Of a stretch of 34,881 nt of DNA, positions 10,698 to 19,840 are shown piece after piece. Position 1 is the first letter of the stretch; every line of letters starts with the position of its first letter. The DNA is from Candidatus Zhuqueibacterota bacterium (lineage in GTDB: Bacteria > BS750m-G25). The stretch lies in NCBI GenBank assembly GCA_016783505.1, contig JADHWK010000021.1, forward strand, positions 1 to 34,881, written 5' to 3'. Under the pieces are notes generated by a model. That model saw only the letters and a program-made list of their open reading frames with translations. It made no database searches and had not been told where the DNA came from. The translations under genes and the position numbers were made by a program.

Positions 10698-11885
10698 CTA
10701 TTCTGATTCTAACAATCCCATTCTTTTTGCCAATTCCAGTGTCCTTCGGGCCCGGGCAGCCACCGGGGCATCTATCATCTTCCGGCCCAACGAGGCGACT
10801 CCAGATCCCTTTTCTTCCGCTTCCCTTAAGGCGGCCAATACCTTCTGGGCGTGCTCAATTTGCTTCGGGGTGGGAGCAAAAGCCCGGTGAACCGGCTCAA
10901 TCTGACCGGGGTGGATCAAGCCCTTGCCGTCGAAGCCCAGGGAGATGGCCTCTTTAGTGCTGGCGATCAGGCCCTCGGTGTCGGCCACATCCGAGAAAAC
11001 GGTGTCAATGGCCTGGACGCCGGCGGCCCGGGCAGCCAACACCAATTGACAGCGGGCCAGGTAGCTTTCCCGGCCCTCCTTGGTCCGGTCGGTCCCGATG
11101 TCGGCGGTGAAGTCCTCAGCCCCGAAGCAGATGGCCACCACCCTGGGGCTGGCGGAGGCGATCTCAAAGGCGAGCAGTACCCCCTTAGCCGACTCAATGA
11201 TGGGCATCAAGAAGGTCTCCTTTTTCTGATCGAACCTCTTCTCAATACTGGCGATCCGTTCTTCAACAGCCTGTACATCTTCCTTTCCCTCGCACTTGGG
11301 GATGAGGATGGTGTCCGGTCCGGCGGGGATGATCTGCTCTAAATCATCGGCCCCAAACGGGGTCCTAAACGAATTAATCCTCACCATACGCTCGGAGCTT
11401 CCGAAATCCACCGCCCGGAGGGAGTTACGAACTAAAATCCGGGCGTCGGGCTTGTCGGCTGGGGCCACCGAGTCCTCCAGGTCCAGGATGATGGCGTCAG
11501 CACCGAACAGCCCGGCATTCAGCATCAGGTCGGGGTTGTTGCCGGGGATGTAGAGCCTTGATCTCCTTAACCGATCCCTGGTCACTTGAGGCTGGGGCCC
11601 CTTTGCCGGGGGCAGAACCCCGGGACCCTCGATGGGTAAAAGCTCGCGGGCGGCGTCCTCGACCCGGGCCATAATGACGTGGTCCAAGGCCCCCCGATCA
11701 TTCGCCTTTACGTGTACATGTTGGATACCCAGTTTTTGAAGGGTGTTCTGAATGGTCGCCTTTATTTGTTCCCCAAACAGTGTCTGCACAGAGCTGGTCA
11801 GGTCAATCCCAATAACTCCGGTCTCCCGTTTTTCCAGTTCGATGAGAATATCGCCCTTTTCGGCCCGTCCGGATGTTACCGTCAT
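10698..11885 (-). CDS. citE: Fusion of a citrate lyase ACP-like (CitD) domain and citryl-CoA lyase beta subunit (CitE)
   Basis: aa 1-85 match the CitD pattern (SSVQTLFGEQI, DRGALDHVIMARV). aa ~105-395 match CitE (RRSRLYIPGNNP, ILDLEDSV, IIESAKG, GAEDF, GKGLIHP, MIDAP). Confidence 0.9.
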   Translation of the reverse strand: MTVTSGRAEKGDILIELEKRETGVIGIDLTSSVQTLFGEQIKATIQNTLQKLGIQHVHVKANDRGALDHVIMARVEDAARELLPIEGPGVLPPAKGPQPQVTRDRLRRSRLYIPGNNPDLMLNAGLFGADAIILDLEDSVAPADKPDARILVRNSLRAVDFGSSERMVRINSFRTPFGADDLEQIIPAGPDTILIPKCEGKEDVQAVEERIASIEKRFDQKKETFLMPIIESAKGVLLAFEIASASPRVVAICFGAEDFTADIGTDRTKEGRESYLARCQLVLAARAAGVQAIDTVFSDVADTEGLIASTKEAISLGFDGKGLIHPGQIEPVHRAFAPTPKQIEHAQKVLAALREAEEKGSGVASLGRKMIDAPVAARARRTLELAKRMGLLESE

Positions 11886-15198: not shown

Positions 15199-15295
15199 TT
15201 GACTAATTTTGTAAAAAGTCTTATTTTACCAAGTAGTATAATACCGAACGGTAAAATATTATTACACCGGTCGGTATTATACCAACCGGTAAAAT
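15199..15295 (+). promoter_or_regulatory. Putative promoter (TTGACT-N17-TATTTT) followed by three TACCGNNCGGTA-like palindromic operators
   Basis: TACCGAACGGTA (15242), CACCGGTCGGTA (15265), TACCAACCGGTA (15280). Confidence 0.6.
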
Positions 15296-15346
15296 CTACT
15301 GCCTGGTTTTTAAGAAATGGACTCCTAAATTGTAAAACTTGATGCG

Positions 15347-16432
15347 ATGCTAACTACACTGAAAAAATATCCGGCTATTTTGAAATTCTTCTACCAAAAC
15401 TTATCAGGACCTTTTGAGGAAAAGTTAGATGAATTGCATCCTCTAATGAAAGCAATTATTCATAACTCTCCCTATCTAAAATTTGTGAATAACTTTCTCG
15501 AAAATTTTACTTTTTTGGGAAAAGAATATCACAATAAAATTGAAGAAATTTTAAAACGGCCCATTTCTGACCCTAACGGAAACGCTGGTATTGTAGCCTG
15601 GCATAATATTTTGGCCGAGTTAACGGCCTTATATATTCTATCAAACAAACTGAATCTCAAAGTAACAGGACTTGAAAGAGTTTCACACCGATATTCTGTA
15701 CAAAACAGGGGGAAATGTGATTTTAGGGTCGAAAACAATCATAGAGAAATTTACTTTGATGTAAAGGACAAAAGTAGTGAATTAAAGCAAACACCCCCAC
15801 CCCGTCTTGATAGAAAATTAAAGGAAATAAAAAGCCCCTTTGTGATCAGTCCTCAATTAAGGAATCGTAATTATAAATGTGATAACCTCGATCAAAAAAT
15901 CGAAACCATTAAAAATGGAATTAATCAAAAGAAAAAAGAGGCAGCTCAGCTAAAAAGACCTTTATATGGATTCAGGTTGGACCTGGAAGATTTCGAGGTT
16001 TTTCTCACCCCCAAAAATAAGGACTTGGCAGATAATTATTATGGATCCGATTTTTTTAACCCTGATGATTCAATTGAGGATTCTTCAAATTGGCTATTCG
16101 GCGAAAATAGCAAGGTAAAAGAAAGTGAACCAAAAAAGCCTATGGTTAAAATTGCTGAAGAAAAGGGCGCGGACTACTTGATGTGCTTAATAAATCCATG
16201 GATCGGAAATGGGATTAAGACATTTGATGATTTCATAAAAGGTCTATTCTCTAACAATGTCAAGACGGCCTACATATTAAAACCCACAAGTGAAAAATGT
16301 AAAAGAATAAGAATTTATGAAAGCACCGACATAAGGTTAGGAACAAAAATTTCAGGTATCATAATCTTTTTGTCTAAAGGTCACTTTCGCATTATTAATA
16401 ATTTGAATAGCAAATATGGATTCTATATATAA
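15347..16432 (+). CDS. AT-rich hypothetical protein, possible PD-(D/E)xK nuclease fold
   Basis: 361-aa ORF; ILAEL...KCDFRV-x7-IYFDVK pattern; spot-counted lines 22-38% GC. Confidence 0.6.
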   Translation: MLTTLKKYPAILKFFYQNLSGPFEEKLDELHPLMKAIIHNSPYLKFVNNFLENFTFLGKEYHNKIEEILKRPISDPNGNAGIVAWHNILAELTALYILSNKLNLKVTGLERVSHRYSVQNRGKCDFRVENNHREIYFDVKDKSSELKQTPPPRLDRKLKEIKSPFVISPQLRNRNYKCDNLDQKIETIKNGINQKKKEAAQLKRPLYGFRLDLEDFEVFLTPKNKDLADNYYGSDFFNPDDSIEDSSNWLFGENSKVKESEPKKPMVKIAEEKGADYLMCLINPWIGNGIKTFDDFIKGLFSNNVKTAYILKPTSEKCKRIRIYESTDIRLGTKISGIIIFLSKGHFRIINNLNSKYGFYI

Positions 16433-16475
16433 AACCCGAATATTATTGCGTGATTAGATATTGGAAGAAATTATA

Positions 16476-16682
16476 ATGAAACTTCCCAAGCTTCAACTTT
16501 CCACCCAGATCTTCATCGGAATTCTCATCGGCATCATCGTCGGTGTGCTTTTTGGCGAAAACCTCCAAATCGTCAAATCACTTGGCGATATCTTTATCCG
16601 ACTTTTAAAAATGATTGTCGTACCCCTGGTTATCATACCCATCACCACCTTCGTCATTACATCTAAAACAGTCCTAAGTTAA
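16476..16682 (+). pseudogene. N-terminal remnant (TM1-TM2) of a dicarboxylate/amino acid:cation symporter
   Basis: LSTQIFIGILIGIIVG...LGDIFIRLLKMIVVPLV is the typical GltP/DAACS N-terminus; similarity then ends and the frame stops after about 68 codons. Confidence 0.8.
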
Positions 16683-16696
16683 GGAGGCATTAACAA

Positions 16697-18325
16697 ATGG
16701 TCAAAAAAGACTCTCCAAAATCCTACAACCAATCTGCTAAGTCCGCCTCCCCTAACGAAGGCAACGGAAAACACCGACGCATCCTCTTCGGTATTATCAT
16801 TGCCATTATCGTCGGCACCCTTATGGGGGGTTGGCTTCCGGATCTCGCAGTGAAAACCTCAATTCTTGGCGAGATTTTCCTAAATTCACTCATGATGATC
16901 GTAGTCCCACTCGTTATGTTTTCAATGATCGTTGGGATTACGGGTCTGGGTGATATTCGCAATCTTGGCTCGATTGGGGGGCGTACTATCCTTTATTATA
17001 TGGTGACAACAGGAATTTCGGTTCTCATCGGCATTATCTTGGTCAATATCGTCCAGCCGGGTAAGGGGATTTCCCACGGTGAGGAACACGCAGAATTTAC
17101 TTATCTAATTGGTGGCGTGAACAATCGCACAGTCACGTTAACAAACGGAACCTGGGAAAAGACGCGTTATAACGAGAAGTATTTGTTGATTCTACAGGAT
17201 CAGCAGGTTCAGGGCACCATTGAATCTATTTCCGAGAATTCTGCGACGGTGAAGTTGTGGGAATCACGTCAAGCAGGCGATGTGTTCTATATCCCCGCAG
17301 AGGATGGCACACGCTTGCCGTTTCGTCGTGTTAGGGGACGGCTTGTGTCTGCCGAACCAGAGCTTGTCCCTTCTGGGAAGGGTGTTGAAATCGCCTTACC
17401 CGTTGTCCAGAAATTGCGTGGCAAGAAAGAGAGGGGTATCGGTAACACGCTGAAGGAGGTCTTGGTCGGAGACAAAGCAATCGGAAAAGAGGGAATGATT
17501 CCACGCAACATTTTCAACGCGATGGTGCGTATGGACATCCTCCCATTGATTGTTTTCTCACTTTTGTTGGGTGCGACGCTTTCCGTCCTTGGTGAACGAG
17601 GACGCTCTGCCATTGATGTGATCTCGATTCTAAATGATGCTGTAATGCGACTTGTCCACTGGATTATGGTCGTCGCGCCAATTGGCATTTTTGGATTAAT
17701 CGCAGCGCGTATTGGTCACGCCGGAGGATTTAGCGGTTTTCTGCCGGAACTGCTTGCACTGGGGAAATATTTTTTCACCGTTTTGCTGGGGCTCGCAATG
17801 CATGGTTTCATTGTACTGCCACTCATCCTCCTGCTCATCGGACGACGAAATCCTCGACTGTATGTAATAGGTGTGGGTTCAGCTCTGCTGAACGCTTTCT
17901 CCACAGCGTCGAGCTCTGCCACTCTGCCGTTGACCATGGAGGGCGTCGAGAAGGAAAATGGGATCTCAAATCGGACGGCAAGTTTTGTTCTGCCACTTGG
18001 CGCCACAATTAACATGGACGGTACTGCCCTCTACGAAGCCGTCGCCGCGATGTTCATCGCACAAGTTTATGGAATATCATTAGGGCCGCTGGAACAAATG
18101 GTCATTTTCCTGACGGCGACGTTGGCGGCTATCGGTGCAGCAGGGATTCCCGAAGCGGGACTCGTCACAATGGTAATTGTCCTTAGAGCCGTTGGGTTAC
18201 CGATCGAAGGTATTGGGCTCATCCTAACGATTGATTGGCTCCTGGACCGATTCCGCACGACCGTCAATGTCTGGGGTGATAGTGTCGGCGCAGGTGTTAT
18301 CGAGACACTTGAAATGAAACGATGA
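16697..18325 (+). CDS. Dicarboxylate/amino acid:cation symporter (DAACS, GltP/GltT family) with a large extracellular insertion
   Basis: FSTASSSATLP, LGATINMDGT, IGAAGIP and DWLLDRFRTTVNVWGD motifs; SD AAGGAGG. Confidence 0.93.
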   Translation: MVKKDSPKSYNQSAKSASPNEGNGKHRRILFGIIIAIIVGTLMGGWLPDLAVKTSILGEIFLNSLMMIVVPLVMFSMIVGITGLGDIRNLGSIGGRTILYYMVTTGISVLIGIILVNIVQPGKGISHGEEHAEFTYLIGGVNNRTVTLTNGTWEKTRYNEKYLLILQDQQVQGTIESISENSATVKLWESRQAGDVFYIPAEDGTRLPFRRVRGRLVSAEPELVPSGKGVEIALPVVQKLRGKKERGIGNTLKEVLVGDKAIGKEGMIPRNIFNAMVRMDILPLIVFSLLLGATLSVLGERGRSAIDVISILNDAVMRLVHWIMVVAPIGIFGLIAARIGHAGGFSGFLPELLALGKYFFTVLLGLAMHGFIVLPLILLLIGRRNPRLYVIGVGSALLNAFSTASSSATLPLTMEGVEKENGISNRTASFVLPLGATINMDGTALYEAVAAMFIAQVYGISLGPLEQMVIFLTATLAAIGAAGIPEAGLVTMVIVLRAVGLPIEGIGLILTIDWLLDRFRTTVNVWGDSVGAGVIETLEMKR

Positions 18326-18474
18326 TTTGTTTTAAAACAGGTGAACCTCACGCTTGAAGGAATCGGCATCATCACCGCTGTGGATAGAATCCTCGATAGG
18401 TGCCGAACCACTATGAATGTCTGGGGTGATCGGTGGGCACCCGGATTATTGCCCATCTGGAAGGAAAAAACTGA
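18326..18474 (+). pseudogene. C-terminal remnant (HP2b-TM8) of a second DAACS gene, with a frameshift
   Basis: Not in the ORF track. Hand translation gives [34 protein letters not shown], then after a 1-nt shift (S)[13 protein letters not shown]. Confidence 0.8.
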
Positions 18475-18591
18475 AATGGAATAATGGAAGGATAGGGGAA
18501 AGCCCATATTCTCCTACCCTCTCTTGTTAACTTACATATTCATTTTACGACAAATTTGTCGTATACATTTTTATCGTAATAAGGAGGAAAT

Positions 18592-19230
18592 ATGCTTAAT
18601 TACATCTGGCTTGCTCTCATGGTAATTGCAATAATCGTCGGAGCAATCAATGGACGTATTGAGGAAGTCACAAAAGCCGCTGTGGAAAATGCCAGTACTG
18701 CTGTGGATATTTCTCTGGGGCTCATCGGTATAATGGCTTTGTGGTTGGGAGTCATGAAAATCGCTGAGAAAGGGGGAATTATTCAAATTCTATCACGGGC
18801 AATTCGTCCTATTGCGCGTTTTCTATTTCCAAGGATACCCAAAGACCATCCAGCTATCGGAGCAATGCTAATGAATATCATAGCTAATTGGCTGGGACTT
18901 GGAAATGCGGCTACACCCCTTGGTTTGAAAGCGATGGAAGAGCTACAGACCCTCAACAAGTCCAAGGATACTGCTACCAACGCCATGGTTGTTTTTCTCG
19001 CTCTAAATACGGCAAGCATTACTATTATACCAATGACTGTCATCGCTGTTAGAGCAAAACTTGGTTCAGCCAACCCCTTTGAAATTATCAGCACTGCAGT
19101 ATTTGCGTCTACATGTGCTACAATTGCAGCAGTGACAGCTGCTAAGTTGATGCAAAAGCCACGTGTAATACGAAGATCCGATCCGGATCTCACAGACAGA
19201 GGCAGGAAGAAAGGAGAAGAAGATGCTTGA
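18592..19230 (+). CDS. spmA: SpmA-like membrane protein (nucleoside-recognition Gate domain)
   Basis: MLNYIW, LWLGVMKIAE, NWLGLGNAATPLGLKAMEELQ motifs; SD AAGGAGG. Confidence 0.9.
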   Translation: MLNYIWLALMVIAIIVGAINGRIEEVTKAAVENASTAVDISLGLIGIMALWLGVMKIAEKGGIIQILSRAIRPIARFLFPRIPKDHPAIGAMLMNIIANWLGLGNAATPLGLKAMEELQTLNKSKDTATNAMVVFLALNTASITIIPMTVIAVRAKLGSANPFEIISTAVFASTCATIAAVTAAKLMQKPRVIRRSDPDLTDRGRKKGEEDA

Positions 19231-19840
19231 TTCCCTCTCTACCGCAGCAGCTATAGATACAATAAATCAGGTAGTCCAAACAGCTACTGGTGGTTCAGAG
19301 TCCCTTTTTGTTATCATTATGAAGGGATTCTCAAACTATGCTATACCTTTTCTATTGCTTGTAATTCCGATTCTTGGATTCGCTAAAAAAGTAAAGGTAT
19401 ACGAGGCATTTGTTGATGGCGCCAAGGAGGGATTCCACGTGGCAGTGCGAATTATCCCCTACTTGGTAGCCATCTTAGTGGCCATTGGGATGTTCCGGGC
19501 TTCAGGGGCCATGGACTTCTTCGTCAAGCTCCTTTCGCCCCTCACCAACCTGGTCGGCATGCCCGCCGAAACCCTGCCGGTGGCCCTGATGAGACCGCTG
19601 TCGGGCTCGGGGACGTTGGGGCTGGTCACCGAATTGATGAATCAATTCGGCCCCGACTCCTTCATCGGACGGCTGGCCTCAACCATGTTTGGCAGCACCG
19701 AGACCACCTTTTACGTGCTGGCGGTTTACTTCGGTTCCGTGGGCATCCGTAGGACCCGCCACGCCGTGGCCGCTGGCCTGATCGGCGACATCACCGGACT
19801 TTTAGTAGCGGTGCTCATCTGCCGGGTGGTCTTTTTGTAA
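19223..19840 (+). CDS. spmB: SpmB-like membrane protein
   Basis: YEAFVDGAKEGF, MFRASGA, LMRPLSGSG and GSTETTFYVLAVYFGSVGI motifs; overlaps the spmA stop. Confidence 0.9.
   Translation: MLDSLSTAAAIDTINQVVQTATGGSESLFVIIMKGFSNYAIPFLLLVIPILGFAKKVKVYEAFVDGAKEGFHVAVRIIPYLVAILVAIGMFRASGAMDFFVKLLSPLTNLVGMPAETLPVALMRPLSGSGTLGLVTELMNQFGPDSFIGRLASTMFGSTETTFYVLAVYFGSVGIRRTRHAVAAGLIGDITGLLVAVLICRVVFL

Follow-up and report, generated by a model that had tools for sequence, protein, structure and literature searches.

In this work we analysed a window of 34,881 nt that is the complete contig C7 of a metagenome bin (Candidatus Zhuqueibacterota bacterium BS750m-G25; 2.51 Mb in 89 contigs, 59.9% complete, and the sole member of its phylum in the genome set searched), in which an intact gene of the dicarboxylate/amino acid:cation symporter (DAACS) family lies between the two ends of another, broken DAACS gene. 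In what follows the flanking, displaced gene is termed A, and the intact gene between its ends is termed B. We consider it likely that a resident DAACS gene was here displaced by a homologue at one locus; the event is a gene displacement in situ, of a known kind, which in this case is unusually well preserved. A previous reading made from the letters of the DNA (the sequence-only reading) had arrived at this interpretation, and it is supported by the different clades of the two genes, by the junctions shared among strains and by the decay of the flanking pieces.

Five features follow one another on the + strand within 16461-18484: a 73-codon open reading frame (ORF), a leader, gene B, an in-frame continuation of it and a stretch in the -1 frame. 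A six-frame search of the whole bin with the PF00375 profile (gathering cut-off 27.9 bits), in which five candidates were scored, gave four DAACS matches, all of them at this locus. It had been described that two DAACS ends flank a complete, divergent DAACS gene, and indeed PF00375 matches all three pieces. The 5' remnant of A (16476..16655, + strand) comprises the start codon and ~60 codons, corresponding to transmembrane helix (TM) 1 and the beginning of TM2. It is contained in the 73-codon ORF (16461/16476-16682), whose product matches the profile over its first ~57 residues (E 1.6e-11, 44.3 bits, profile positions 1-55/57 of 387). The homology to A stops at ~16640-16655, and the final ~25-40 bases of the ORF, including its TAA codon (16680-16682), are part of the 38-nt 5' leader of B (16659..16696, + strand), which carries the Shine-Dalgarno sequence AAGGAGG at 16681-16687. 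Gene B itself (16697..18325, + strand) encodes an intact DAACS/SLC1-type symporter of 542 aa (PF00375 E 1.8e-117, 393.1 bits).

The 3' remnant of A (18326..18474, + strand) holds the last ~50 codons, that is, the end of helical hairpin (HP) 2, TM8 and the C-terminus down to the native stop codon (18472-18474), and matches the profile at positions 343/344-379 (E 8.2e-9, 35.4 bits). As the sequence-only reading had noticed, it opens at the base that follows the TGA of B (position 18326), in the same frame as B; past the GGTGA at 18429/18430 it resumes in the -1 frame and runs to the natural C-terminus. The motif DWLLDRFRTTVNVWGD, quoted in that reading, was found in place, and so was the other motif quoted there. 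The two remnants are complementary, one covering codons 1-~60 and the other codons ~345-end.

To place the three pieces we used an alignment with 101 references: 18 proteins of clade A, 17 insert-bearing proteins or locus translations of clade B, 5 Latescibacterota-type proteins (group C), 22 of 98 additional matches taken by random draw (group D), 20 of the 37 best matches of the 5' remnant (group E) and 19 of 150 representatives picked by hand (group F). Trees were built with FastTree (103 rows) and with IQ-TREE in quick mode (39 rows, with 37 of the 101 references), the remnants entering each as separate rows. In both trees the 3' remnant fell inside clade A, of Fidelibacterota/Marinimicrobia type, beside protein P0192 (support 99), and the intact B fell into the separate insert-bearing, EAAT-like clade B (support 96-99), so the expectation that the intact gene should group elsewhere was borne out. 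The best database matches of the 3' remnant agree with this position: P0038 and P0192 (91% identical over ~34 aa) and P0039 (82%), P0038 being a partial protein (208 aa) from Fidelibacterota that shares a 90% cluster with the 509-aa P0192, and P0039 a protein of 405 aa from Marinimicrobia. Its mean identity was 74% to clade A, 65% to C, 63% to D, 55% to B and 39% to E. The 5' remnant found its best matches among Firmicutes-type GltP-like proteins (54-64% identical); it is 53% identical to residues 1-51 of P0039, and its mean identities were 54% to C, 51% to E, 47% to A (with P0192 reaching 56%), 42% to D and 34% to B.

When clade A and both remnants were constrained to group together, the likelihood was 4.69 log units (lnL) better than that of the free quick tree, with a p value of 0.62 in the approximately unbiased test (p-AU); the same constraint with clade B gave a tree 39.3 lnL worse (p-AU 0.044). 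The remnants are also less identical to B than to A, and the earlier statement that they are not copies of the intact gene holds: judged by these comparisons they are not pieces of B, and the 3' remnant is Fidelibacterota-type. The sequence-only reading had added that remnants hitting different subfamilies would point to a decayed tandem array instead; on this point the 3' remnant behaved as a clade A sequence, while the 5' remnant was ambiguous, going with group E in the free trees and with clade A in the joint placement just mentioned, an outcome that does not overturn the interpretation. An origin of both remnants from one gene is compatible with the data.

Our metagenome comparison set consisted of 80 DAACS loci, in which B has relatives at loci L026-L031 (72-81% identical, with the insert described below). 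The DNA similarity of these B-type loci to the window ends at the ends of the gene, except for the last ~38 nt before the ATG, and the leader aligns with what precedes the B-type genes of L031 and L027, two unrelated contigs. Since the similarity is limited to the gene and this leader, the imported piece would be ~16659-18325 and would contain no more than a gene and its ribosome-binding leader. The C-terminal tail of B (..ETLEMKR and stop) is among the shortest in clade B, thus the 3' junction may fall within the last codons of B.

The arrangement was found again in independent sequences. L025, a metagenome contig of 4570 bp that is a record separate from the window, is 98.5% identical to it across 16659-18579 and presents both junctions. 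Moreover, Logan contigs of four public runs from four studies (X5, X6, X8 and X10) were aligned to 15200-19300; all run data are contigs, from which depth and absence are not interpretable. The 3' junction was bridged in three of the four runs, by contigs of X5 (18096-18703, with no differences), X6 (17762-19300) and X10 (17855-18475), and the contig of X8 extends just 27 nt beyond it, the bridging rule being 31 nt. The 5' junction was bridged in one of the four, X10 (16644-16771, and 16659-16771 with the upstream part), while X5, X6 and X8 had no contig covering it. A chimeric assembly, which the earlier reading had named as a result that would overturn its interpretation if reads did not span the junctions, was therefore not what these copies revealed. 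They carry single nucleotide polymorphisms and indels of their own, which makes them separate assemblies of related strains. The arrangement is common to related strains of several habitats and older than their divergence.

These strains differ in the state of the remnants. The frameshift that had been noted in the 3' remnant is confirmed as a polymorphic 1-nt deletion between 18429 and 18430, present in the window, X5 and X6; at this place L025 (C) and X10 (T) have an extra base, so that the 3' remnant is open and unframeshifted there. In the 5' remnant 57 bp (16602-16658, in frame) are missing in L025 and in one X10 contig, read from a loose end, other X10 contigs retaining them.

To evaluate constraint we compared the window with L025. 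Gene B showed 11 differences in 1629 nt, seven of them synonymous and four non-synonymous, the latter in three codons, which gives a crude ratio of non-synonymous to synonymous rates of ~0.19. In the 5' remnant 4 of 51 nt differ, in three codons and all non-synonymous, in addition to the 57-bp deletion, and for the 3' remnant the count is 5 of 149 nt, three of these being non-synonymous and two synonymous, in addition to the 1-nt indel; the spacer after the 3' remnant has 7 differences in 105 nt. The contrast between the remnants (9/200) and B (11/1629) is significant (Fisher p 1e-4), and within ..DRILDMCRTT.NVWGD each lineage has lost a conserved residue, the window by a change of M to R and L025 by one of W to G. 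The remnants of A decay as non-coding DNA and B is under purifying selection. Between the same two sequences the synonymous divergence of B (7 per ~413 sites) is ~4x lower than that of the two Gate-domain genes that follow the locus (21 per ~316; Fisher p 7e-4), though the adjoining remnants are the most diverged parts; recent recombinational exchange between strains, or codon constraint, may account for the low value in B.

A mobile element was not apparent, as had been claimed before. No pair of direct or inverted repeats brackets 16659-18325; the sole repeat pair near both junctions is 19 nt long, 74% identical and AT-rich, with one arm 55 nt off the junction. A Pfam scan of 15 neighbouring gene products found no integrase or transposase family, and a search of Rfam returned only a tRNA-Lys ~15 kb away. 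Insertion by a mobile element or as an integron cassette was consequently discarded, there being neither bracketing repeats nor an integrase or transposase in those neighbours.

The sequence of events that we propose starts with a piece of ~1.67 kb, holding only the homologous gene B and its ribosome-binding leader, which would have entered A, reading in the direction of A, through recombination of the illegitimate or microhomology kind and not by means of a mobile element. Some ~285 codons from the middle of A would have been lost, at the same event or through later deletions, leaving its first ~60 and last ~50 codons as flanks whose order and orientation are unchanged. B would then be transcribed from the old promoter of A upstream of 16476, with the 73-codon remnant ORF, which ends in the Shine-Dalgarno region of B, acting as an accidental upstream ORF, and with a palindrome and T-run at 18546-18563 that may be the old terminator of A. 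An insertion into an isofunctional gene would be tolerated because B makes good the loss of A at once; B would now do the job of A, whose ends drift and are being trimmed by small deletions.

A second case was detected in L027 when the flanks of the metagenome loci were scanned. Its B gene is 81% identical to that of the window, and its neighbours are at most 37% identical to proteins of the bin or have no match. At 11644-11778, starting at the stop codon of B, lies a decayed DAACS 3' end (tblastn E 5.6e-6), found with a profile hidden Markov model at E 3.7e-7 among 35,118 six-frame pieces; the downstream flank scored 27.8, compared with a null maximum of 3.7 over 467 null segments. Among 18 B-type locus rows, only the window, L025 and L027 scored above the null downstream of B, and only the window and L025 upstream. 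Group D is nearest to the L027 piece (63%), whose identity to the B gene beside it is only 32%. It matches the L025 remnant at 20, 22 and 8 of 30 sites in codon positions 1, 2 and 3 (1+2 versus 3, p 1.2e-4), while the B genes of L027 and the window match at 244, 267 and 132 of 276. This codon-position pattern indicates that the L027 and the window-lineage remnants diverged while they were working genes. The alignments fit a picture in which a B shared more recently would have entered, in separate events, the transporter gene resident in each of two hosts.

Several observations weigh against displacement as the explanation for the window, and we consider them together here. The free trees (FastTree and IQ-TREE quick) put the 5' remnant in group E, apart from the 3' remnant, a placement to be read with the facts that group E was pre-selected as its best matches and that the 57-aa fragment fills 14% of the columns. 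The rejection of a B origin for the remnants is marginal at p-AU 0.044. No intact A gene at this locus was present among the genomes and contigs searched, the ancestral state being thus inferred. A scan for promoters and terminators performed at chance level, with 10 promoters found for 8.4 +/- 2.7 expected. In L027 a 14-codon ORF upstream of B looks by eye like the start of a DAACS gene, and its HMM score of -3.6 lies within the null; taken alone, L027 also fits a decayed B-A pair.

Part of these points would be explained by a decayed tandem array (A1-B-A2, or B-A with another gene) reduced by two deletions, each stopping at the edge of the kept gene, a history to which we give a real though small chance. 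Tandem DAACS genes do exist, the two complete genes of L047 (9587-12293) being the only case in the 80 metagenome loci; the free trees separate the remnants into different clades; and L027 shows just a 3' remnant behind B, as would be expected of a B-A pair after decay. Such a history, however, needs two resident genes and two deletions hugging the leader and the stop codon of B within a few bases, the window and L025 aside, none of the B-type loci has an intact second DAACS gene next to B, and the remnants are complementary, their joint placement not being rejected. Quite improbable, in our opinion, is that the A::B composite spreads as an allele, with the A ends serving as homology arms for homologous or homeologous recombination into the intact transporter genes of further strains or species, which would account for the recurrence with no mobile element involved. 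The second B gene, that of the unrelated contig L027, adjoins the 3' end of a foreign DAACS gene, which would suit this idea, as would the low synonymous divergence of B relative to the Gate-domain genes, which is what a recent import would leave; but the window-lineage and L027 remnants, with the codon-position matches given above, belong to clade A and clade D respectively, hence the arms would be host-specific and far too diverged for homologous recombination between these hosts, and no donor-recipient pair was seen.

An assembly chimera, an arrangement existing in no cell, has a practically negligible probability. The incompleteness and fragmentation of the bin, and run evidence consisting of contigs and not of raw reads, leave some room for it; against it, L025 and contigs of several runs show the same junctions together with polymorphisms of their own, the 57-bp deletion, the in-frame 3' remnant and a 1268-bp insertion, and the junctions do not fall at corresponding points of the homology between A and B, a pattern that a k-mer collapse of paralogues would not give. 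Displacement of A by B at a single locus is hence the reading that we retain. Going beyond it, landing inside a homologue could be a recurrent, favoured route for clade B, whose genes would time and again replace whichever SLC1-type gene a host carries, of clade A here and of clade D in L027, and the composite may then spread by its homology arms; we hold this extension to be rather unlikely. An SLC1-type protein presumably works as a homotrimer, and if the extension were true, a swap that skips coexistence would avoid mixed trimers, which might be harmful.

Xenologous gene displacement in situ is a concept whose source is reportedly Omelchenko et al. in 2003. It is stated in PMC2374987, where the usual assumption is that the displaced and the incoming genes coexist first, and PMC12668577 reports that DAACS genes spread horizontally. 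The locus described here resembles such displacements in the same place in the gene order, taken by a homologue of another clade, and in the conserved neighbourhood, presumably including the regulation. B has one end of A on each side, at a distance of a few bases, in the window and likewise in L025 and the run contigs, and with regard to clades the 3' remnant belongs to clade A and B to clade B with the supports given above, the 5' remnant being compatible only. Displacements are normally deduced from conflicting trees after the traces are gone, whereas here both ends of the displaced gene persist as scars and the junctions can be read to within ~10 bases; in addition, B lies inside the native gene, so that no coexistence phase is needed. 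In the literature searched, of which the coverage was partial, we found no description of the ends of a displaced gene flanking its replacement.

Disruption by an insertion sequence, a transposon or an integron cassette likewise splits a gene into 5' and 3' pieces by inserted DNA; in our case, by comparison, terminal repeats and a target-site duplication are absent, the target has lost its middle part, and what was inserted is one gene homologous to it, accompanied only by the ~38-nt leader. Homology-facilitated or short-patch illegitimate recombination during natural transformation can replace resident DNA by a short foreign fragment with no need of mobile-element functions, and leaves only the junctions as a scar; the difference here is that the junctions do not fall at corresponding points of the A/B homology. 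The strains display successive steps of decay, with the 3' end in frame or frameshifted and with the 57-bp deletion. The case implies that insertion into a resident gene is enough for a homologue to take its place in one step, and L027 makes it testable in metagenome data whether this reflects the filter that selection puts on insertions or a mechanism that targets an isofunctional gene.

Regarding the origin of B, some observations count for a foreign one. The codon usage of B lies at the 1st percentile of 985 long ORFs, and between the window and L027 the third codon positions are alike at 132/276 in the B genes and at 8/30 in the remnants (p 0.033). Others are against it or neutral: the guanine-cytosine (GC) content of B is ordinary, the codon usage of the Gate-domain gene at 18592-19230 lies at the 0th percentile and the GC content of the genome is very heterogeneous, and L029, a stretch of 21.6 kb from a metagenome contig of 133 kb, carries a B-type gene (71-73%) in a different context. 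Six neighbouring ORFs of L029 are 57-84% identical to proteins scattered across other contigs of the bin, from which we infer that this contig comes from a relative of the organism of the bin. The gene order is scrambled between L029 and the bin, and L029 and L092 agree in the tail of B and in their downstream neighbours and look like one organism sampled twice. In the inner tree of clade B, 9 of 15 inner branches are open, and a sister relationship of the window B and L029 was not rejected (p-AU 0.21).

Searches for relatives of A were carried out as well. Among 401 genomes, 114 had DAACS genes and none had a clade-A gene, the best hits being 59% identical (partial) and 57% (near full length); a scan of genome contigs with the A-type alignment, which gave over-specific patterns, returned 2 unrelated loci only. 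The neighbours of the window were found in 0 of the 80 metagenome loci other than L025.

The full-length relatives of B that share its insert are P0040 (72% identical; a member of its cluster is from Candidatus Poribacteria bacterium) and P0041 (63%). When compared with solved structures B was closest to human EAAT1 constructs (5llm, E 4e-87) and gave ~1e-55 with the archaeal GltPh; the A-type P0039 gave 1e-123 with the reconstructed AncInt (9bgz) and ~1e-85 with both EAAT1 and GltPh. The transport domain of B (HP1, TM7, HP2 and TM8) is complete, as residues 277-541 align to residues 219-480 of the EAAT1 construct with no large gaps, and a structure model of B shows the expected helices. Both the A-type proteins and B retain the TM8 stretch D..LD..RT..NV.GD, which we take to be the residues that bind acidic amino acids, and the best solved relatives of both are aspartate/glutamate carriers; the resident A was an SLC1-type transporter gene, probably for aspartate/glutamate. 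Neither type reached the cut-offs of the NCBIfam equivalogs GltP (NF008440), DctA (NF002461/NF009587) and SstT (NF010151): B scored 225 (cut-off 638), 223 (513) and 103 (308), respectively, and P0039 scored 290, 261 and 138, so that these models assign no substrate.

B alone, compared with EAAT1, GltPh (1xfh/2nwx) and AncInt, bears between TM3 and TM4 an insert of ~140 codons (17069..17491, + strand; residues ~125-265), an all-beta domain conserved in clade B. In the models its strands lie at residues 128-233, with predicted local distance difference test values mostly of 60-90. The insert domain had no match in Pfam and none in Foldseek at E <= 0.001, and its best VIA match, the C-terminal domain of a phage tailspike (Z 7.8), is within the range of common arrangements. 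The literature searched on TM3-TM4 inserts in prokaryotic glutamate transporter homologues held nothing specific; the extra loop of eukaryotic EAATs presumably lies further on, between TM4b and TM4c. Outside the insert the sequence of B resembles human EAATs more than it does GltPh, and clade B may be an uncharacterised bacterial SLC1 subfamily.

Upstream of the locus a low-GC ORF of 361 aa (15347..16432, + strand) ends 43 nt before the 5' remnant. Its GC content of 0.334 lies at the 4th percentile of the long ORFs of the genome; it had no match in Pfam, NCBIfam or PADLOC, and the Atlas gave 'hypothetical protein' clusters only. It is probably a separately acquired accessory gene. Downstream there are two overlapping Gate-domain genes (nucleoside recognition, SpmA/SpmB-like; 18592..19840, + strand; PF07670 in both), which are 99% and 98.5% identical in L025.

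A terminator-like palindrome, TACGACAAATTTGTCGTA, followed by a T-rich run (18546..18563, + strand), is found in the spacer that separates the 3' remnant from the first of these genes. Directly 5' of the Gate-domain genes a palindrome can be read as ACGACAAATTTGTCGT (18544-18579), which may be an operator or a terminator. The P-loop ATPases encoded downstream of the remnants in L025 and L027 were examined as possible relatives and discarded, with no detectable relation (E 2.0). In L025 the insertion of 1268 bp mentioned above (L025 1975-3242) is located between 18579 and 18580, with the palindrome duplicated around it, and encodes a 389-aa PF01637-type ATPase with weak PADLOC candidate matches (PDC-S27, 8.6e-9); the start of the same insertion is visible in X8. 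The palindrome spot 3' of the 3' remnant is a strain-variable insertion site.

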